A DNA stretch of 64,000 bases, from contig CAZSRF010000002.1 in NCBI GenBank assembly GCA_964609155.1, forward strand, positions 352 to 64,351, given 5' to 3'. A program made the position numbers and the translations under genes. Below are positions 8,401 to 62,245 of this stretch, piece by piece. Source of the DNA: an uncultured Gammaproteobacteria bacterium. Its GTDB lineage: Bacteria; Pseudomonadota; Gammaproteobacteria; JAGOUU01. The notes below the pieces were generated by a model, which saw only the letters and a list, made by a program, of their open reading frames with translations, was not told the origin of the DNA and did no database searches. Position 1 is the first letter of the stretch; each line of letters begins with the position of its first letter.

Positions 8401-9858
8401 ATGTCTAATTTAAGCAGTGCGGATGTTAATATTAAACAAAATTTCGATCAAGAACTTATTGATATTGCTCAATATGTTGATCAATATCAAATAACAAATC
8501 AATTAGCTTATGATACTGCTTATTACTGTCTCATGGATTCAATAGCTTGCGCTATTCAAGCTTTAGATTTTCCAGAGTGCACTAAGCATCTTGGTCCTTA
8601 TATACCAGGCACTATAGTACCTAATGGGGCTCGTGTATTAGGCACTTCTTATGTGCTAGATCCAGTAAAAGCAGCTTATGATAATGGTGTGCTTATAAGA
8701 TGGTTGGACTATAATGATACCTGGCTTGCCCAAGAGTGGGGGCATCCATCAGATAATTTAGGTGGTATTTTAGCTGTGGCGGATTTTTTGTCAAGACAAC
8801 AATTAGCTAATAACAAGTCTTGCCTAACCGTTAAAGATATTTTAACGTATTCTATTAAGGCACATGAAGTACAAGGTGGCACAGCTTTGGAAAATTGCTT
8901 TAACAAAGTAGGGTTGGATCATGTTGTTTTAGTAAAGTTAGCCTCAACCGCAGTGATTACCAAAATGCTAGGTGGAACGTTAAAAGATATAATTAGCGCA
9001 ATATCGCAAGTTTGGGTGGATGGACAAAGTTTACGTACGTACCGTCATGCACCTAACACAGGATCTAGAAAATCATGGGCTGCTGGAGATGCAACCTCTC
9101 GTGCGGTAAAGCTAGCAATGCTTACATTAAAAGGTGAAACAGGTTATCCAAGTGCTTTAAGTGCTAAAAATTGGGGATTTTATGATGTTTGTTTCAAACA
9201 AAATAAATTGAAGTATCCTGATTATTTTAAATTTTCTAGTTATGTTATGGAAAATATTTTATTTAAAATTTCTTTTCCAGCTGAATTTCATGCGCAGACT
9301 GCAGCTGAAGCTGCAATAAAGCTTCATTCTGCAGTTAAAAATAAGTTGTCAGATATTTCTAAGATATTATTAACAACACAAGAACCAGCTATAAGAATTA
9401 TTAGTAAAAATGGTCCATTACATAATCCTGCTGATAGAGATCATTGTTTGCAATATATTGTTGCAGTTGGTTTATTATATGGTGATCTTACAGCAAGACA
9501 TTATGAAGACTCTGTAGCTAATGATCATCGTATAGATGCTTTACGTGAATGTATGATAGTTTCAGAAGATAAACAATTGACTGCCGATTACTATGATCCA
9601 AACAAACGTGCTATTGGCAACAGTGTACAAGTATATTTTAATGATGGCAGTTGTACTGAAAAGGTTTCAATTGATTATCCGGTTGGTCATAAAAATAGAC
9701 GACAAGAAGGGTTACCTTTGTTAGACGAGAAGTTTAGAGCAAGTATAAGCAACTACTATAGTAAACGTCAGTCTACTCGTATCATTGATTTATTTAGTAA
9801 TAAAGAGCAGTTATTAAAAATGCCTGTGTATGAGCTTATGGATAATTTAATAATATAG
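8401..9858 (+). CDS. prpD: 2-methylcitrate dehydratase
   Basis: About 485 aa MmgE/PrpD-like protein. Third gene of the prpBCD arrangement. Confidence 0.85.
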   Translation: MSNLSSADVNIKQNFDQELIDIAQYVDQYQITNQLAYDTAYYCLMDSIACAIQALDFPECTKHLGPYIPGTIVPNGARVLGTSYVLDPVKAAYDNGVLIRWLDYNDTWLAQEWGHPSDNLGGILAVADFLSRQQLANNKSCLTVKDILTYSIKAHEVQGGTALENCFNKVGLDHVVLVKLASTAVITKMLGGTLKDIISAISQVWVDGQSLRTYRHAPNTGSRKSWAAGDATSRAVKLAMLTLKGETGYPSALSAKNWGFYDVCFKQNKLKYPDYFKFSSYVMENILFKISFPAEFHAQTAAEAAIKLHSAVKNKLSDISKILLTTQEPAIRIISKNGPLHNPADRDHCLQYIVAVGLLYGDLTARHYEDSVANDHRIDALRECMIVSEDKQLTADYYDPNKRAIGNSVQVYFNDGSCTEKVSIDYPVGHKNRRQEGLPLLDEKFRASISNYYSKRQSTRIIDLFSNKEQLLKMPVYELMDNLII

Positions 9859-10003
9859 AATATTCAAAAATAATTATTGCTTTCTAGAGTAACAAGAACT
9901 TAGGTAGCAGCAAGCCTCTTATACCTATTAACGAGCAGATATCTTGCACAGAAGCTCTGGGTTAGTTAACAGCTAGTTGAAACTTAATTATACTTGTGTA
10001 TAA

Positions 10004-10636
10004 TTGGTTATTATGAATAAGTTGTACACAATAAGCCAAGCAGCAACCCATTATGGTGTCTCATCCTCTACTTTAAGAAGATGGGAGCGTGAAGGCAAGC
10101 TAATACCAGATAGGACAAAGGGAAAACAACGAAGATATAAACTAGTAGACGAATGTGAATCTAAACTCCAAGTAGCACCAGATAAAAAAGTTACTGTAGC
10201 CTACGCTAGAGTTAGTAGTCACGATCAAAAAGCAGATTTAGAGCGTCAAAAGCAATTACTAGAAATGTATTGTGCTTCGCAAGGTTGGCAATTTAAAGTT
10301 ATTTCCGATCTTGGTAGTGGCATGAACTACAATAAACGTGGCCTAAAAGAGTTGTTGTCGGTAATTTTAAACGGCGACATAAGTCGTTTAGTATTAACAC
10401 ATAAAGATAGATTATTAAGATTTGGTGCTGAGTTAATATTTTCACTATGTGAACGTCGAGGTGTAGAAGTAGTTATTATTAATAAAGGCGATGAACCTAG
10501 TTTCGAAGAAGATTTAGCAAAAGACGTATTGGAAATAATCACAGTGTTTTCAGCTAGATTATATGGTTCAAGAAGTAAGAAAAATAAAAAGCTATTAGAA
10601 AATCTCAAGGAAGCGGCAAGTGTTGTTGGTTCATAA
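10004..10636 (+). CDS. tnpA: IS607-family transposase TnpA (MerR-like HTH fused to serine-recombinase/resolvase catalytic domain)
   Basis: N-terminal HTH (YTISQAATHYGVSSSTLRRWEREGKL). Resolvase catalytic region VAYARVSSHDQKADLERQ with the catalytic Ser. Confidence 0.85.
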   Translation: MVIMNKLYTISQAATHYGVSSSTLRRWEREGKLIPDRTKGKQRRYKLVDECESKLQVAPDKKVTVAYARVSSHDQKADLERQKQLLEMYCASQGWQFKVISDLGSGMNYNKRGLKELLSVILNGDISRLVLTHKDRLLRFGAELIFSLCERRGVEVVIINKGDEPSFEEDLAKDVLEIITVFSARLYGSRSKKNKKLLENLKEAASVVGS

Positions 10637-11801
10637 AATTGAGCTTAAAGTCAATAATAAACAAGCAAATTATTTTGCTAAAGCTTGTGGTGTAGCGAGA
10701 TTTGCCTATAACTGGGCGTTAGATGAATGGCAAAAGCAGTACAAAGCTGGTCAAAAACCTAATGAGATTAATCTGCGGAAATATCTAAATTCTATAAAAA
10801 ACGAACAATTTCCATGGATGTTAGAAGTCACCAAAGTAGCCCCGCAGCAGGCAATCAAGAATTTAGGCACAGCATTTCAAAGATTTTTTAATCATCAGGG
10901 CAAGTACCCAAAATTTAAGAAAAAGGGAATTCACGATTCTTTTCGAGCTGACAATGGCCCAGCTAAGGTTGGGGCGGATGCTGTACAGATTCTTGATAAA
11001 AAGATTAATTTACCAAGAATTGGTTGGGTAAGATTAAAAGAAAGATTGCGATTTACTGGTCAAATAAAATCAGTGGTAATTTCAAGACGCGCAAACCGCT
11101 GGTATGCGGCAATAAGTGTAGATATCACAGAGCTAAACCAAGTGCACAAAAACCAAGGCATTGTTGGTGTAGATTTAGGTATTAAGACACTGGCCACATT
11201 ATCAACAGGTGAGCCAATAGTGGGGCCACGGGCGCACAAACAGTTGTTAACAAGAGTGAGAAAATATTCTAAAAAGTTATCCAGATGTAGAAAAGGCAGC
11301 AAGAATTATAAAAAAGCGAGACTCAAACTTAGTAAAACTCATGCCAAGATACGAGATATTAGAATAGATAATCTACATAAATTAACTACTGATTTAGCAC
11401 TGAAGTTCAATACAATAGGCATAGAAGATTTAAATATAAGCGGCATGGTTAGAAATAAGAAACTAGCTAGGCATATTATGGATGGGTCATTCTATGAATT
11501 TCGACGTCAGCTTGAGTATAAAGCTAAATGGTATGGTTCAACAGTAGTGGTTGTCGGTAGATTTTATCCATCGAGTAAGCTGTGCCATTGTTGTAATACT
11601 ATAAATCAAGAGCTGACACTTAGCGATAGGCAGTGGCAATGCAATAATTGTAATAAGCTACATGATAGAGATATCAATGCAGCTATAAATATCGCCAACT
11701 ATGCAAGGCATGCCAATATGATTGTTAGTACACAGAGCTCCTGTGGAATTTACGCTTGCGGAGAGAAAAGCGCTGGCGCAGCAGTTAACACTGCTGCGTG
11801 A
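10620..11801 (+). CDS. tnpB: TnpB (OrfB) RuvC-like RNA-guided endonuclease with C-terminal zinc finger
   Basis: N-terminus MLLVHKIELKVNNKQANYF is typical of TnpB. It has a RuvC-like split domain and a CxxC...CxxC zinc finger (CHCCN...CNNCNKLHDRDINAAINIA). It overlaps tnpA by 17 nt. Confidence 0.85.
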   Translation: MLLVHKIELKVNNKQANYFAKACGVARFAYNWALDEWQKQYKAGQKPNEINLRKYLNSIKNEQFPWMLEVTKVAPQQAIKNLGTAFQRFFNHQGKYPKFKKKGIHDSFRADNGPAKVGADAVQILDKKINLPRIGWVRLKERLRFTGQIKSVVISRRANRWYAAISVDITELNQVHKNQGIVGVDLGIKTLATLSTGEPIVGPRAHKQLLTRVRKYSKKLSRCRKGSKNYKKARLKLSKTHAKIRDIRIDNLHKLTTDLALKFNTIGIEDLNISGMVRNKKLARHIMDGSFYEFRRQLEYKAKWYGSTVVVVGRFYPSSKLCHCCNTINQELTLSDRQWQCNNCNKLHDRDINAAINIANYARHANMIVSTQSSCGIYACGEKSAGAAVNTAA

Positions 11802-12075
11802 AACTATGTCTCGTTGAAACAAGAATTTAACACTAAATTTGATCACTCTGAACAAGTATGATAAGGTTTAGATAAGTTTGAAAGAGCGGTTATGAGTCCT
11901 TTCTTCGCATTTGAGCGATAAGTACTGACTGAATATTTGCCTGTTGATAATCTAACATCTTGTTTTGTTATCAATCTATATGTTATGTTGATTAATAAAT
12001 ATATTTTTAGTATTTACTATTTTAATCGATTACTGTAAACTACAAAATATAACATGCAGCTATTCAACTAGGTAT

Positions 12076-15883: not shown

Positions 15884-18256
15884 ATGACAGCAGCATTTGT
15901 CAAATGGTTTAGTCAGCTTGGGATGAAAGATTTACCATCTGTGGGTGGTAAAAACGCTTCTTTAGGAGAAATGATTGGTAGCTTAACTAATCTTGGAGTA
16001 AAAGTTCCTAACGGTTTTGCGACTACAGCAGAAGCCTATCGAGAATTTTTAGTTCAAAATAATTTAGCTAATAGAATAAATAGTAAACTATCTGATTTAG
16101 ATATCAATAATGTCTCGAAATTAGCGCAAGTAGGTGCTGAAATCAGGCAAGATATATTAGATACACCATTAATGCCTAGACTTGAGGCTGAAATTAGAGA
16201 GTACTATCAAACTCTTGTTGGTAATCTTCAATCTTCGGTAGCAATACGATCTTCTGCAACTGCAGAAGATCTACCTGATGCATCTTTTGCTGGTCAACAA
16301 GAAACATATTTGAATATCTTAGGCATAGATAATGTTTTATTAGCCATTAAGCAAGTTTTTGCTAGTTTATTTAACGACCGTGCAATAGCTTATCGAGTAC
16401 ATAAAGGGTTTTCTCATTCTGAGGTTGCATTATCTGCCGGTATTCAGCAGATGGTTAGAAGTGATCTTGGTGCAAGTGGAGTAATGTTTACTTTAGATAC
16501 GGAAACAGGCTTTGAAGACGTTGTATTTATTACATCATCCTATGGACTGGGAGAAGCTGTTGTACAGGGTATAGTTAATCCTGATGAGTTTTATGTTTAC
16601 AAAGATTCTGTACGACATAATAAAGAGGCAGTTATTAATCGTCGTTTGGGAAGTAAATCAGTTGCTATGATTTATACAAGTGATCACCGAGCAGGATACT
16701 CAGTAGAAACTATAGAGGTTGCCTCAGATAAGAAAAATAAGTTTTCTATTTCAGATAATGACTTATTAATTTTAGCTAAACATGCAATGACTATTGAACA
16801 GCATTATGGCTGTCATATGGACATTGAATGGGCTAAAGATGGGTTGAGTGGTGAGATATTTATTCTTCAAGCAAGACCTGAGACGGTTAATAGCCAGATA
16901 AAGAATAAAATTATTACTAAATTTGAATTTACTGATAAATTATATAATACACTGCCTTTGGTTAGTGGTCGTGCTATTGGGCAAAAAATTGGTATTGGTA
17001 AAGTTAAAATTCTCAATACACATAAAGAAATGCAAGATTTTTCTCAGGGTGATGTATTGGTAGCCGATATGACAGATCCTGATTGGGAACCAATCATGGC
17101 AAAAGCTAGTGCTATAGTTACTAATCGAGGTGGTAGAACATGTCATGCTGCGATTATTGCCCGAGAGTTAGGTATCCCTGCCGTTGTGGGTTGCGGTGAT
17201 GCTACAGATAAATTACAAAGTGGCAATTTAATTACTGTGTCTTGTTGTGAAGGAGAAACTGGCTATATTTATAGCGGCCATAGAGACTTTAATGTTGATG
17301 CTATAAATGTTGATAATATGCCAGAAATTCCGTGTAAAATTATGATGAATATTGGTAATCCAGAAAAAGCATTTACTTTTCAAAATTTACCGAATGCAGG
17401 TGTTGGCTTAGCAAGATTAGAATTTATTATCAGTCATATGATAGGAGTGCATCCAAGAGCGTTGTTAGATTTTGATGTCTTAGATAGAGAATTAAAGCAA
17501 GAAGTTTCCGATAAGATTAGTGGCTATAAATCTCCGGTGGATTTTTATATTAATAAATTAGCGGAAGGAATCGCCATGCTTGCAGTGGCCTTTAAAAATA
17601 AACCAGTTATAGTGCGATTGTCTGATTTTAAATCTAACGAATATGCTAATTTATGCGGAGGAGTTAACTACGAACCACGCGAAGAAAACCCTATGATTGG
17701 CTATAGAGGTGCTGCTAGGTATATTGATAAAAATTTTAAATATTGCTTTGAACTGGAATGTTTGGCAATTAAAAAAGTTCGTCAAGATATGGGGTTAAAA
17801 AATATTCAGATCATGATCCCATTTGTTAGAACATTAGAGCAAGCAAAAAAAGTTATTGCTACTTTAGAGGATTTTGGATTATCTCGAAATAAGGATGACT
17901 TAAAAATAATTATGATGTGTGAAGTACCATCTAATGTTATTCTTGCGGAAGAGTTCTTAGAATATTTTGATGGTTTTTCTATCGGTTCTAATGATCTCAC
18001 TCAGTTAACTTTAGGTATAGATCGAGATTCCGGAATTGTTGCGGATAGTTTTGATGAACGTGATCCTGCAGTAATGAAATTATTAGAGCAGGTAATAAAA
18101 ATATGTAAACAAAAAAGTAAATACATAGGAATATGCGGCCAAGGACCTTCAGATCATCCAGATTTTGCAAGTTGGCTTCTTGCTCAGGGGATTGATTCTT
18201 TATCTCTTAATCCTGATACTGTATTACAAACATGGTTATATTTAGCTAAGTCTTGA
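15884..18256 (+). CDS. ppsA: phosphoenolpyruvate synthase
   Basis: 790 aa. PEP-utilising enzyme motifs, including the phosphohistidine region GGRTCHAAIIARELGIPAVVG. Confidence 0.92.
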   Translation: MTAAFVKWFSQLGMKDLPSVGGKNASLGEMIGSLTNLGVKVPNGFATTAEAYREFLVQNNLANRINSKLSDLDINNVSKLAQVGAEIRQDILDTPLMPRLEAEIREYYQTLVGNLQSSVAIRSSATAEDLPDASFAGQQETYLNILGIDNVLLAIKQVFASLFNDRAIAYRVHKGFSHSEVALSAGIQQMVRSDLGASGVMFTLDTETGFEDVVFITSSYGLGEAVVQGIVNPDEFYVYKDSVRHNKEAVINRRLGSKSVAMIYTSDHRAGYSVETIEVASDKKNKFSISDNDLLILAKHAMTIEQHYGCHMDIEWAKDGLSGEIFILQARPETVNSQIKNKIITKFEFTDKLYNTLPLVSGRAIGQKIGIGKVKILNTHKEMQDFSQGDVLVADMTDPDWEPIMAKASAIVTNRGGRTCHAAIIARELGIPAVVGCGDATDKLQSGNLITVSCCEGETGYIYSGHRDFNVDAINVDNMPEIPCKIMMNIGNPEKAFTFQNLPNAGVGLARLEFIISHMIGVHPRALLDFDVLDRELKQEVSDKISGYKSPVDFYINKLAEGIAMLAVAFKNKPVIVRLSDFKSNEYANLCGGVNYEPREENPMIGYRGAARYIDKNFKYCFELECLAIKKVRQDMGLKNIQIMIPFVRTLEQAKKVIATLEDFGLSRNKDDLKIIMMCEVPSNVILAEEFLEYFDGFSIGSNDLTQLTLGIDRDSGIVADSFDERDPAVMKLLEQVIKICKQKSKYIGICGQGPSDHPDFASWLLAQGIDSLSLNPDTVLQTWLYLAKS

Positions 18257-18278
18257 TCAGGAGTTAAGCAGAGATTCT

Positions 18279-18603
18279 GTCATACCGCAGGGCTGTCCAG
18301 CGAATAGTTGTAAACTTAAATATAATTACCGGGGATAGCGTCATCCTACAATTTTTCTGTTCGAAATATTGAAAAGAAGTAATAACTTTCACAGAAAAAT
18401 TTTAGGATCCAGAGGCGATCTTGCTTATTGGTGCCAATAAGGTAGATTTTTCCTGGATCCTTGAATTTTTTTGCGAATTTTTAGTGTTCTTTTCAAGCTC
18501 TCGAGCAAAAAAATCCAAGGATGACGTCGTTGAGGGTATGTTATTTAATCTTCCAACTATTCATCGGACAGCCCTGTGTCATACCGGCCGAGGAGCCGGT
18601 GTC
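18279..18603. repeat. About 325-bp MITE-like element with roughly 28-bp terminal inverted repeats
   Basis: Left end GTCATACCGCAGGGCTGTCCAGCGAATA. Right end TATTCATCGGACAGCCCTGTGTCATACC, which is its reverse complement with a few mismatches. It contains an internal inverted repeat GGATCC...TTATTGGTGCCAATAA...GGATCC at 18405-18460 and the hairpin module CCGGCCGAGGAGCCGG at 18585-18600. Confidence 0.6.
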
Positions 18604-18617
18604 TTGTGGTATAAATC

Positions 18618-19934
18618 TTAACCATCCCAAACTTGGTTAGTAGCAATAAACAATGCAGCTCCAATCGTCCAGTCTATATCGTGCTTAGGAATTAAAAAGT
18701 TATGGTAATCATCTGGCATGTTATAACCATTATTTAATAGTATTTTTAAATAAGTAGCGTCAAAACAAGCCTCATTAAGTTCTGCTTTGCTAATATTGGG
18801 GAATTTACTTTTAAATGCTTCATGGTTTGCATGGCAACTATCAGGAATATTTTTAATTAGATCGACAGGAAGCTTAGAATTAAAAAAATTAAAATTATAA
18901 TAATATCCAGAAGCAGCAACAAATTTCATATTGCTTTTTAATGCGGACTTGATAGCTTTAGCAATTGTTAGGTGTTCTTTTTTATTTTGCAAATAAATTT
19001 TAATAAGATCGCCGCATCTAAAATAATTAAAATTATTTGTTTTATTTATCTCATGGGGTGTGTTGACACCTGTTTCTGGGATGCTGCATTCTTTGTTGGC
19101 TTGTTTAGAATCATAAGTAGCAATATTCTTTTTAGTTTGTACTAACCCATAACCTAAAATACTATTGCTATAAATAGTGTATTCTGAGCTATCAAATTTT
19201 AGTTTAAATAAATTTTTTTTAAGATCCGAGTTTTTTTTATTCTTCTTTTCATTATATTCCATAGCAACTTGAGTAGAGGCTCCACCCATATCTAGAGCAG
19301 CTATGGTAGGTTTATTAAGTTGAATGGTTTGAAGTTTATAATTAATACTTAGCCAATCAAAAATTCCTTCCAATTCTCCTGGTATAGTCTTTGCTATTAT
19401 CATGTCAGGGTTATGGCCTGAATTAATAATAACCTGTTTGATTTTTTTATAAAGTTCGTATTGTTGTTTGGCGTGATGTAATCGCATGCCGGCAGTGGCG
19501 TAAAAATATATTGGTATCTCTTTTATTTCAATATGTAGGTTTTTTAATTGACCATCTAACTTTTTATATAGAGGTAAAATATGCTCGGAAATATTTTGAT
19601 TTTGATGGTCGTGACAGTAATCAGCGATTGCATGTTTATCATTGCTTTTAGCTATGGCAATTTCAGTAAGCTTTGGAATGGCGTTAGGAGACTCTTTATT
19701 TTTATCTCTTTGCACATGATAGGCATGCATCCTTGAGCCAGTGCTTCCTAGATCAACGATAATAATATTTTTATGTGGATTTTTCTTGATAGATAAATCA
19801 TCAGGAGATACACAGTAATTAGGTTGACTTTCTTTTGGTTTGGAAAGATAGTCTTTTAAATTAAACCCGGCGAGCAGTGTTTCCGCACCAAGAGAAGAAA
19901 GCAATAAAAACAGACAGATACAAATCTTTCGCAT
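18618..19934 (-). CDS. secreted ecto-NTPDase / apyrase (GDA1/CD39 family)
   Basis: Signal peptide, then apyrase conserved region 1 (IIIVDLGSTGSRMHAYH) and later ACR-like blocks (ALDMGGASTQVA). A eukaryote-type enzyme known in Legionella. Confidence 0.8.
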   Translation of the reverse strand: MRKICICLFLLLSSLGAETLLAGFNLKDYLSKPKESQPNYCVSPDDLSIKKNPHKNIIIVDLGSTGSRMHAYHVQRDKNKESPNAIPKLTEIAIAKSNDKHAIADYCHDHQNQNISEHILPLYKKLDGQLKNLHIEIKEIPIYFYATAGMRLHHAKQQYELYKKIKQVIINSGHNPDMIIAKTIPGELEGIFDWLSINYKLQTIQLNKPTIAALDMGGASTQVAMEYNEKKNKKNSDLKKNLFKLKFDSSEYTIYSNSILGYGLVQTKKNIATYDSKQANKECSIPETGVNTPHEINKTNNFNYFRCGDLIKIYLQNKKEHLTIAKAIKSALKSNMKFVAASGYYYNFNFFNSKLPVDLIKNIPDSCHANHEAFKSKFPNISKAELNEACFDATYLKILLNNGYNMPDDYHNFLIPKHDIDWTIGAALFIATNQVWDG

Positions 19935-32130: not shown

Positions 32131-32552
32131 AATTGCTCCATGTTAATTAAAGGTTTTTTGACCTGTTAAATTCTACCGGAATAATCAGAATATACAAATA
32201 GGACTTTTGTTTAGGGGCTACACGCGCGGGAAAGCTGTTGATAATTCCCCAAGAAAATTAGGCATCTTCAGGAGAATTGCAGGTGAGCGGAGTTAGATCT
32301 TAGTCAACTCTTACATAGTATAGAGGTAGTAAATTGCACTAGCGACAGCAATAAGCAAAAGAGCTGTTATAGTTACTCCATCAGAGAAATCATTGGGTCT
32401 ATTACCGTGTTCATCAAAGTGTTCTTGATTGTTCATAGATTAAGCTTAAAACAGTTTAAAATTAACTGCTATTGTATCAAATAATTTATATTTAGCATTT
32501 ATTTTAAAAAAATATTTATCCAGTTGATTTAAAGCCTATCAGAACTATTAGA

Positions 32553-32663
32553 ACTTACGCAAAAGCTTGTCGTACCGGCCAAAGAGCCAGATCTTGCAGA
32601 AAAGATCTCAGTTCTGCGCACTCGCTTGACCGAGACGACAACTTACAGTTATTCTGCGTAAAT
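32553..32663. repeat. About 110-bp MITE/REP-like element, copy C (TIRs ACTTACGCA...TGCGTAA)
   Basis: In reverse-complement orientation it aligns with the copies at 41056-41170 and 62144-62245: shared core GTCRTCTCGGTCAAGCG...GCAAGAT...GGCCGGTAYGACA. Confidence 0.6.
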
Positions 32664-32838
32664 CTTGCCTATAGAGGCCTATCACAAACTTTAAAGAATC
32701 ACCGGGAGATCAATGGCAGATTAGTGGGAGATTATTGTAAAAAATGGTTCTACTATGCTAATATAATCAGTATGTTAATTTGATAATTCTGATTTAATAT
32801 TTCAAGATATAGGCTTAATTCATAAGCTTAAGAGATAT

Positions 32839-39144: not shown

Positions 39145-41055
39145 ATGAGTAATAAAAATAAAATAATACTAGGAGTTAGTTTAACTTTTTTAGTAGTAAA
39201 CTTTGCTAATGCCGCTGATAAAATTTCACTTAACACTAACAGCTTGATTACTAAAAATAATAATACTACTTTAATTAAACAATTGGGTAATTCTTATAAA
39301 TTCAAACAAATTAAAAAAGTTGAGCTACCCAATGGTAAATTTAGATATAAATTTACACAATACTATAATGATATTCCAATATGGGATAGTGGAGTTGTAA
39401 GTAATAAAGAAAATATTAGTGATGTAAATAGCAATGATGTTTTACATGGCAGCTTATTGATTAATCTGGAAAAAGATATCTCTTTAGGTAAAGCTGGTTT
39501 AACTGAAAGCCAAGCGCAAGAAATTGCGATTAAAGCAGCTGGCGTTAAAGATAGTTCTACTGTAAAACATATGAACAATGTACAGTATATCAAAAATTAT
39601 GCTGATATGGCAAAAACAGTGTATGTTATAGATTTTATTATAGAAGCAGATAATACTATTAAAAGTCGTCCATTTTTTATTATTGACGCCAATACAGGTG
39701 AGGTCTTGGAAAAATGGGAAGGTTTAAATACAGCTAATTATGGTAAGGGTACAGGGCCTGGGGGCAATGTCAAATCAGGTAAATATTATTACGGCAAAGA
39801 CTATGGTAATCTTGTAGTAGATGTTAATGGTACATCTTGTACAATGAGTAGCCCTAATGTTGATACTTATGACATGAAGCAAAAGACTACAGGAACAGGG
39901 ACTTTACATCAATTTACTTGTTATGAGAATGCTTATAAAGAAATAAATGGTGGATATAGTCCGATAAATGATGCTCACTATTTTGGAAATGTTGTGTATG
40001 ACATGTATAAAGAATGGTATAAAACGGCACCATTAACTTTTAAATTAAAAATGCGTGTTCATTATGGTAATAATTATGATAATGCCATGTGGGATGGTCA
40101 GCAAATGAGCTTTGGTGATGGTGGTGCTACTTTCTACCCATTAGTTTCACAGGATGTTGTGGGGCATGAGGTAAGCCATGGTTTTACTCAGCAAAACTCA
40201 AATCTTGTTTATGAGAAACAACCTGGTGGTATAAATGAAGCTTTTTCTGATATGGCTGGCGAAGCTTCTGAATACTACTTTAATAAAAATAAAACAGAGG
40301 AAGCTAAGGTAGATTGGTTAGTTGGTGAATCCATTATGAAGGGTGCTAAAGGTAAAGCGTTAAGATACTTTTCGGAACCAACCAAAGATGGCAGTTCTAT
40401 CAGCAATGCAAAAGATTATAGTGATAGCTTAGATGTACACCAAACGAGTGGTGTTTATAATAAAGCATTCTATACTCTATCTAATATGACAAACTGGGAT
40501 CTTAAGAAAGCGTTTGATGCTTTTGTCTTAGCTAATCAAGTATATTGGACACAAAATACTGGTTATGATCAAGGTGCATGTGGTGTTAAAAATGCTGCAG
40601 CTGATTTAGGTTATGCAGCAGCTGATGTTATTAGTGCATTTAAAGTTGTTGGTGTAAATGCAAGTTGTAGCAATGATCCAACAGATCCGACAGATCCGAC
40701 AGATCCAACCGATCCTACTCCAGCGCCTGAGGCTATTGAGTTACAAAAAGCAGTTCCTGTGTATAGCCTTTCTGGAAATGCTGGAAGTAAAAAACTTTAC
40801 TATATGGACGTAGCTGGATCTAGAATTGGTGTCTTAAGTTTGTGGAATTTTGGTGGTGTAGGGGCCCCTTCTATGCAGGTGGCTTTAAATCGTATGCCAA
40901 CCAATGCTGACTATGATTGTACCTCTAGTTCTGATTTGGAATTAGGTAATTATAGATCGTGCTTAATATTCACACCAAAAGCGGGTAGATATTTTATAAC
41001 TGTCAATGGTGACAATGCTTATCAAGATGTTACTTTATGGGGCAGTTATCAATAG
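39145..41055 (+). CDS. secreted M4 (thermolysin/vibriolysin-like) zinc metalloprotease with C-terminal PT-repeat linker and PPC-like domain
   Basis: Signal peptide. HEXXH motif VVGHEVSHGF and a downstream GINEAFSD glutamate. DPTDPTDPTDPTDPT linker followed by about 110 aa of C-terminal domain. Confidence 0.85.
   Translation: MSNKNKIILGVSLTFLVVNFANAADKISLNTNSLITKNNNTTLIKQLGNSYKFKQIKKVELPNGKFRYKFTQYYNDIPIWDSGVVSNKENISDVNSNDVLHGSLLINLEKDISLGKAGLTESQAQEIAIKAAGVKDSSTVKHMNNVQYIKNYADMAKTVYVIDFIIEADNTIKSRPFFIIDANTGEVLEKWEGLNTANYGKGTGPGGNVKSGKYYYGKDYGNLVVDVNGTSCTMSSPNVDTYDMKQKTTGTGTLHQFTCYENAYKEINGGYSPINDAHYFGNVVYDMYKEWYKTAPLTFKLKMRVHYGNNYDNAMWDGQQMSFGDGGATFYPLVSQDVVGHEVSHGFTQQNSNLVYEKQPGGINEAFSDMAGEASEYYFNKNKTEEAKVDWLVGESIMKGAKGKALRYFSEPTKDGSSISNAKDYSDSLDVHQTSGVYNKAFYTLSNMTNWDLKKAFDAFVLANQVYWTQNTGYDQGACGVKNAAADLGYAAADVISAFKVVGVNASCSNDPTDPTDPTDPTDPTPAPEAIELQKAVPVYSLSGNAGSKKLYYMDVAGSRIGVLSLWNFGGVGAPSMQVALNRMPTNADYDCTSSSDLELGNYRSCLIFTPKAGRYFITVNGDNAYQDVTLWGSYQ
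40675..40719 (+). repeat. 5 x 9-bp tandem repeat (GATCCRACA) encoding (DPT)5 linker
   Basis: Direct imperfect tandem copies seen in the sequence, inside the protease ORF. Confidence 0.8.
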
Positions 41056-41170
41056 ACTTACGCAGAATGATTCTAGCTTGTCATCTCGGTCAAGCACGAA
41101 GTGCATAGAACCATGATCTTTTTTGCAAGATACCGGCTCCTCGGCCGGTATGACAGGTTTTTATGTAGCT
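41056..41170. repeat. About 110-bp MITE/REP-like element, copy A, with GC-rich hairpin TACCGGCTCCTCGGCCGGTA
   Basis: Lies exactly between the protease stop (41053-41055) and the convergent sensor-kinase stop (41161-41163). It aligns with copies B and C. Confidence 0.6.
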
Positions 41171-61907: not shown

Positions 61908-62143
61908 TTTATCCTCTTTTAGTTTAATGCATATAATTAATGCACTTAGTATAATTTTAGTTAATAATTTAGGCTTGACTTATAATTTTGTATTTATTTT
62001 TGCTGACCAAGCCTAAATTACATTTCTAATACCTTGTAATTTACTTGGATTATAAAGAAGCAAACTTAACACTAACTGAATCTAATTTTTTTAATCTAGA
62101 TATTCAATTTAACTATTTAGCAGTGAAATTAAAGAAATTCAGG

Positions 62144-62245
62144 ACTTATGAACAATGATTGTAAACTGCCATCTCGGTCAAGCGCAGTGCGCTGAACCAA
62201 GATTCTCAGCTGCAAGATACGGCTGTATAACAAGCTTTTGCTAGC
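62144..62245. repeat. About 100-bp MITE/REP-like element, copy B (hairpin module deleted)
   Basis: ACTTATGAACAATGATTGTAAACTGCCATCTCGGTCAAGCGCAGTGCGCTGAACCAAGATTCTCAGCTGCAAGATACGGCTG...ACAAGCTTTTGCTA aligns with copies A and C. The pnuC stop codon lies at its right end. Confidence 0.55.

Follow-up and report, generated by a model that had tools for sequence, protein, structure and literature searches.

Within a 64-kb stretch of DNA from an uncultured gammaproteobacterium (64,000 nucleotides, hereafter the window), the phosphoenolpyruvate synthase gene ppsA and a gene encoding a GDA1/CD39-family NTPDase are convergent and are separated by a spacer of 361 bp (Table 1). The organism is AT-rich, and its LepA protein is ~78% identical to those of Aliikangiella and Kangiella. 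A protein identical to one encoded in the window is present in SRR12404947. The NTPDase, which has a signal-like segment at its N-terminus, has as its best solved relatives the chains 4brk and 3aap, both named ectonucleoside triphosphate diphosphohydrolase I and both from Legionella pneumophila. In the 78%-identical relatives L001 and L004, an FtsX-type permease gene or other genes are found 3' of ppsA and the NTPDase gene is absent from that position, which suggests that the NTPDase gene is a lineage-specific acquisition.

The spacer, which extends from the ppsA stop (18256) to the NTPDase stop on the opposite strand (18618), is dominated by one inverted-repeat structure. This had been stated in a preliminary description of the DNA, and the ORF ends and a repeat finder agree with it. 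The same description had drawn a MITE-like element of 325 bp, which is 36 bp too long, the element that we delimit being 289 bp (18288-18576). It had also assigned to the element terminal inverted repeats (TIRs) of ~28 bp; an inverted repeat does exist, with 35-nt arms that are 83% complementary, but the outer GTCATACC belongs to a 10-bp direct repeat, TGTCATACCG. The inverted repeat proper starts with CAGGG at 18288 and ends with CCCTG at 18576, and the inverted-repeat sequence of the element is CAGGGCTGTCCnnnGAATAG. The 20-nt core of the TIR is found at two sites in the window, both at the element ends, where 0 would be expected by chance. Gapped alignment of the two arms of the element gives 71% identity, and the interior is AT-rich. 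The internal inverted repeat with GGATCC that had been described earlier is present, together with its central palindrome.

The longest ORF lying fully within the 289 bp is 38 aa, no transposase is encoded, and none of the ORFs in the element has a homologue in the protein libraries. A MITE is taken here to be shorter than ~600 bp and to lack a transposase, and at 289 bp the element falls within that definition. The 66-aa ORF that runs from the right half of the element across the adjoining hairpin has 0 homologues among 5.8 billion cluster representatives and 0 among 1.84 billion representatives; it had already been dismissed as a gene, and the two protein libraries give no reason to reinstate it.

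Table 1. Coordinates in the window of the flanking genes, the 289-bp element and its parts, the flanking direct repeat and the ~110-nt repeat family.
Feature	Position	Strand	Details
ppsA (phosphoenolpyruvate synthase), left flank	15884..18256	+	790-aa ORF; homologues with PPDK_N/PEP-utilizers domains, named phosphoenolpyruvate synthase
Left copy of 10-bp direct repeat TGTCATACCG, read as target-site duplication (TSD)	18278..18287	.	Perfect direct repeat with 18577-18586; adjoins first TIR base
Non-autonomous transposable element (MITE), 289 bp	18288..18576	.	Imperfect full-length palindrome; ends CAGGGCTGTCC / GGACAGCCCTG
Left TIR, 35 nt	18288..18322	+	83% complementary to 18542-18576; first 11 nt CAGGGCTGTCC identical to ISRm16 ends
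Inner palindrome	18339..18526	.	Arms 18339-18431 / 18434-18526, 93 nt, 72%
18-bp hairpins, one per inner-palindrome arm	18343-18360/18391-18408 and 18457-18474/18505-18522	.	Repeat finder
GGATCC, internal, two sites	18405-18410 and 18455-18460	.	Sequence
Central palindrome TTATTGGTGCCAATAA	18425-18440	.	Centre of inner palindrome
66-aa ORF, spurious	18421..18621	+	Spans right half of MITE and hairpin; no homologue; region missing in sister species
Right TIR, 35 nt	18542..18576	-	83% complementary to 18288-18322
Right copy of 10-bp direct repeat TGTCATACCG, read as TSD	18577..18586	.	Also makes up nt 1-10 of the family-A hairpin module
Target hairpin module of ~110-nt repeat family, outside MITE	18577..18606	+	30 nt, 97% reverse-complement to 41126-41155
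GC-rich hairpin ACCGGCCGAGGAGCCGGT	18583-18600	+	Recurs at 41132-41149
NTPDase gene (GDA1/CD39 family), right flank	18618..19934	-	Pfam PF01150, E = 9e-45
Further ~110-nt repeat copies	32553-32665 and 62140-62225
Full ~110-nt repeat copy	41054..41157	-	Uninterrupted target TGTCATACCGGCCGAGGAGCCGGT; paralogous 'empty site'

The direct repeat and the repeat family at the insertion site

What might explain a perfect 10-bp direct repeat on either side of a palindrome whose own arms have diverged? The two copies of TGTCATACCG match at 10/10 positions and adjoin the TIR ends exactly on both sides. By our own calculation, two 10-nt sequences at positions set by the TIRs would be identical by chance with a probability of ~4^-10, or ~1e-6, and we read the direct repeat as a target-site duplication. 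Because the duplication is perfect but the arms of the element are only 71% alike, the imperfect palindrome would seem to be older than the insertion, and a palindrome that predated its insertion would have had a source copy elsewhere.

The right copy of the direct repeat forms part of a GC-rich hairpin module that is identical at 29/30 nt between 18577-18606 and 41126-41155, the common module being TGTCATACCGGCCGAGGAGCCGGTATCTTG. The preliminary description had placed this hairpin at the right end of the element and had linked it with the repeats at ~41.1 kb; the link with that family is confirmed, but the hairpin is outside the element and is a fragment of the target. Members of the ~110-nt family (family A) consist of ACTTACGCA/TGCGTAAGT-like ends, the GC hairpin module and a TCTCGGTCAAGC module, and at 18.5 kb only the hairpin module is present, the remaining family modules being absent. 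The left flank, GAGTTAAGCAGAGATTC, was considered as the left end of a family-A copy and rejected, the sister species having native spacer there. The family is also found in the sister species (L068 8279-8350 and L067 ~9780-9830). At the sister site orthologous to 41.1 kb the ~110-nt repeat is in the opposite orientation, and at the one orthologous to 32.6 kb only a ~35-nt remnant is present.

If 18288-18576 and one 10-mer are removed from the site at 18.5 kb, what is left is exactly the TGTCATACCGGCCGAGGAGCCGGT of the 41.1 kb copy, which is the hallmark of a transposition event whose cut was staggered by 10 bp. The pre-insertion allele would read GATTCTGTCATACCGGCCGAGGAG, with a single TGTCATACCG. 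In the mechanism that we propose, a DDE 'cut-and-paste' transposase, which in the IS4 family would have a YREK motif, would have bound the CAGGGCTGTCC... ends and made cuts in the target staggered by 10 bp, and gap repair would then have duplicated TGTCATACCG on both sides. The target would have been the flank of the GC-rich hairpin of the ~110-nt repeat family, in the short stretch on which ppsA and the NTPDase gene converge. Of the 5' arm of the hairpin the duplication covers just 4 nt, and it is off the hairpin axis.

The sister-species spacer and the fold of the element

The sister species is represented by Logan contigs that were reached by cluster look-ups, with L063-L066 carrying the spacer hairpin; the sister contigs have 88-92% DNA identity to the window, with ~89% as the figure for the species, and the same gene order. 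The sister spacer between ppsA and the NTPDase gene is 106 bp and the element is absent from it. Homology between window and sister ends at 18265 and restarts at 18612, and in place of 18266-18611 there are 91 unrelated bases that hold a different hairpin with a 15-bp stem. The target hairpin is absent as well. Diverged, with a different hairpin and without the target hairpin, the sister spacer is not a clean empty site. The more distant L001-L005, with 78%-identical ppsA, were tried as an orthologous empty site and are uninformative, since their downstream gene differs and there is no NTPDase gene. Since it is missing in the sister species, the element is not conserved sequence. The preliminary description had held that conservation of the same 325 bp in all relatives would speak against a mobile element, and what the sister species has is a 106-bp spacer without it. 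The label 'MITE-like' that was given to the element is borne out by the TIRs, the perfect 10-bp duplication, the lack of coding capacity, the uninterrupted paralogous target and the absence in the sister species.

Several other intergenic differences were observed between the window and its relatives. The sister spacer hairpin, CCTCCCCTATCCTCC ... GGAGGATAGGGGAGG, is located at L063 8955-9045 and is also present in L064, L065 and L066, and each lineage thus has some GC-rich hairpin between ppsA and the NTPDase gene, not the same one. Turnover hot spots between the sister species are found both in the ppsA-NTPDase spacer and at the ~110-nt repeats. A 41-aa ORF with a hydrophobic C-terminal half (~32316-32441, minus strand) is conserved in sister contig L067 (9545-9670) and is annotated as a gene in sister contigs; the ~100 bp upstream of it (32190-32300), which are relatively GC-rich, do not align to L067 ~9490-9545 and are a further intergenic indel or replacement hot spot. 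An IS607-type insertion sequence occupies 9892-11963, with one ORF (10004-10636) for a TnpA with MerR-HTH and serine-resolvase domains and a second (10620-11801) for a TnpB with OrfB_IS605 and a Cas12f1-like TNB domain; sister contig L063 has just 206 bp at this position.

When folded, as the preliminary description had advised, the spacer proved far more stable than shuffled sequence: the RNA fold of the whole 361-nt spacer has z = -11.2 and -13.1 for the two strands, the DNA fold of the 289-bp element has z = -9.5, and no shuffle (0) folds as well as the native spacer or element. The element is predicted to fold almost end to end into a single long hairpin. Could it then be a functional structure that is resident and not mobile and that serves the two convergent genes, for instance a terminator working in both directions, a 3' UTR hairpin processed by RNase III, or a locus for a small RNA? 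Very stable folding on both strands and a location between convergent genes are what such a structure would have, the sister spacer also has a strong, though different, hairpin, and MITE-derived sRNAs are known in Coxiella (PMC5896051). The element itself, however, is not conserved in the sister species. With a GC-rich stem followed by a T-run as the criterion, 0 terminator-like sites were found on both strands of 17900-19000, and a scan found no promoter-like sites within the element. There were 0 Rfam matches in the window at gathering thresholds, and below threshold only generic plant miRNA-precursor hairpins (e.g. 37.7 bits vs 211 needed). A functional structure would also leave the 10-bp direct repeat and the IS-type termini unexplained. 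We therefore consider it very improbable that the element is a resident structure of this sort, and the earlier idea of a terminator or small-RNA locus finds no backing in the terminator and promoter scans, in Rfam or in the sister species. It is possible that a read-through transcript from either gene would hold a hairpin with a ~140-bp stem, with an effect on 3'-end stability; any effect on expression, for example through a long hairpin at the 3' end of both RNAs, would be a by-product.

Terminal sequences and the parent transposase family

The terminal 11 nt of the element, CAGGGCTGTCC, are identical at 11/11 positions to those at both ends of ISRm16, and GAA at positions 15-17 is common to the two as well. 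ISRm16 is an insertion sequence of the IS4 family in Sinorhizobium meliloti, where a copy of 1299 bp is annotated 'IS4-like element ISRm16 family transposase'. Judging by its length and termini, we infer that ISRm16 belongs to the IS4 subgroup IS4Sa, the members of which have ends of the form CA------T and make direct repeats that are 8-10 bp long (PMC2266710, Table 1). The first nine bases of the window element, CAGGGCTGT, fit CA------T at both ends, and its 10-bp repeat is within the 8-10 bp range. Unlike ISRm16, the window element has no transposase gene and is 289 bp; it is palindromic over its full length, and its interior, which is AT-rich, is unrelated. The hosts differ too, one being a rhizobium and the other an uncultured AT-rich gammaproteobacterium.

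An element of the same kind, with a 10-bp duplication, might instead have been mobilized by a transposase of the ISAs1 family. The criteria applied for that family were IRs of 14-22 bp starting CAGGG and direct repeats of 8-10 bp (PMC11946415, PMC6305408), with 10-bp repeats being given for the family in one of these sources (PMC11946415), and the CAGGG ends and 10-bp repeat of the window element agree with them. Indeed, an ISAs1-only attribution was our first idea, and it was downgraded after the results with ISRm16 and L041 (below) and the comparison with the ends of yhhI. ISArsp11, of the ISAs1 family, has the IRL CAGGGCTGATGCAAAGTCG and a 10-bp DR (PMC6305408, Table 3), and its IRL matches the window element at 8/11 of the first nt. 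The E. coli yhhI H-repeat is a bona fide ISAs1 (NF033564, 412 bits), but its ends, CAGGGAAAGAT and CAGGGCAAGAT, match the first 11 nt of the window element at 6 and 7 positions only. Both are weaker end matches than the 11/11 of ISRm16, and neither the window nor the relatives' contigs yielded an ISAs1 transposase. A search of the literature on ISAs1-derived MITEs or ISRm16 found nothing specific. We keep mobilization by an ISAs1-family transposase as a rival explanation, albeit an unlikely one.

Elements with the same ends are found in metagenomes. A paired-end metagenome scan for CAGGGCTGTCC and GGACAGCCCTG separated by 252-282 nt gave 36 loci (L026-L061), which are real elements of 276-302 bp with ISRm16-type ends CAGGGCTGTCCGGGGAA and TIRs of 11-23 nt, and 27 of the 36 have flanking repeats of 8-11 bp (9 bp in 16 and 10 bp in seven). 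They resemble the window element in size, in the terminal 11-mer, in the duplications of 8-11 bp and in their insertion at GC-rich hairpins; only the terminal 11-13 nt are common in sequence, a match imposed by the search pattern. Unlike the window element, most of them are GC-rich and are not full-length palindromes, and most of the contigs in which they lie are GC-rich too. When the empty sites were rebuilt, ~21 of the 27 insertions proved to have the duplication at the apex of a REP-like hairpin, whereas in the window it takes in 4 nt of the 5' arm. In L041 an IS of 1297 bp (69-1365) directly adjoins a MITE (1366-1665) with the same ends. The ORF of that IS encodes an IS4-family transposase (PF01609 and DUF4372; NF033592 at 210 bits vs a cut-off of 115) that is 74% identical to ISRm16 and has no ISAs1 match. 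In the light of the ISRm16 and L041 ends, the fit to IS4Sa and the mismatch of yhhI, we favour an ISRm16-like member of the IS4 family as the parent. Probably, the locus holds a 289-bp non-autonomous DNA transposon (MITE) that derives from an IS4-family element with an ISRm16-like, IS4Sa-type DDE transposase and that was inserted at the flank of a hairpin.

Copy number, hairpin targets and known mobile elements

The window contains one copy of the element, and a second copy was found neither elsewhere in the 64 kb nor in ~100 kb (non-redundant) of the relatives' contigs. A 20-base TIR pattern had 0 matches in 185,579 species-representative genomes (GTDB) and 0 in JGI metagenomes. A 17-base pattern gave 20 singletons in unrelated taxa and one in viral contigs; all of them lacked a partner end, and we read these singletons as chance matches. 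Nor was a resident transposase found: tblastn searches of the window and of the relatives' contigs (~100 kb non-redundant) with IS4 and ISAs1 queries gave no IS4-like or ISAs1-like transposase, and the IS partners that share the terminal 11-mer are in other organisms only. The IS607-type IS, a ~2-kb indel at 9.9-11.9 kb, was considered as a resident source of transposase and is unrelated to the element. Other copies would presumably exist, or would once have existed.

That only one copy is known, and that the whole element is one imperfect palindrome, would also be expected if the palindrome had arisen locally during replication or repair by snap-back duplication, with no transposase involved and with the flanking 10-mer as microhomology. 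Arms of only 71% identity next to a perfect flanking repeat are at odds with this, as is the 11-nt match of the termini, at both ends, to a named IS. Moreover, the repeat length is within the 8-10 bp range of the IS4Sa group (PMC2266710), and the interior of the element has no source elsewhere in the window. We regard a local origin of this kind as highly unlikely, and transposition of a MITE with IS4-type ends as the better explanation of the locus.

The element is reminiscent of other hairpin-forming mobile DNA of bacteria. The Chunjie MITE of Geobacter uraniireducens is likewise AT-rich, with 21-bp TIRs, 9-bp direct repeats and a very stable RNA fold; unlike the window element it is 178-235 bp, multi-copy and recently active (PMC3184786), and the likeness is one of architecture and not of sequence. 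In Coxiella burnetii, QMITE2 is a hairpin-bearing intergenic repeat, often at gene 3' ends, that is a target of IS1111 and the orientation of which varies between strains (PMC5896051). Like QMITE2, the ~110-nt repeat family is a landing site for another mobile element and differs in orientation, although what invades QMITE2 is a complete IS of the IS110 family and not an IS4-type MITE, and the two are likened by behaviour and not by sequence. A further precedent is ISRm22, of the IS4 family, which inserts into REP or GC-rich palindromic repeats exactly at the axis of the palindrome, with 6-bp repeats reported (PMC1525189). The window insertion differs in being off the hairpin axis and in having a 10-bp repeat.

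These comparisons raise the tentative and rather doubtful idea of structure-directed targeting, in which transposases of the ISRm16 type (IS4Sa-like), and with them their MITEs, would seek out extragenic hairpins rich in GC, with the ~110-nt family as a landing pad. If it were true, one repeat would come to lie inside another where convergent genes end, and an RNA hairpin with a ~140-bp stem could be recruited as a 3' end common to both genes or as a site for RNase III. For the metagenomic elements, insertion at hairpin apexes by ISRm16-type MITEs extends the REP targeting already described for ISRm22, and ISRm16-type ends mark out MITE families, widespread in metagenomes but so far without names, whose insertions are at such apexes.

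What the window contains is a real and well-delimited insertion, nested in a repeat, of a non-autonomous element that is probably of IS4 type, and it represents an ordinary kind of bacterial mobile DNA that leaves the current understanding of MITEs unchanged. It matters chiefly to annotators, who can discard the 66-aa ORF as spurious and treat the 361 bp that separate ppsA from the NTPDase gene as mobile DNA lying within another repeat. For the biology of the organism, it indicates that an IS4-type transposon has reached this uncultured, AT-rich lineage of gammaproteobacteria.
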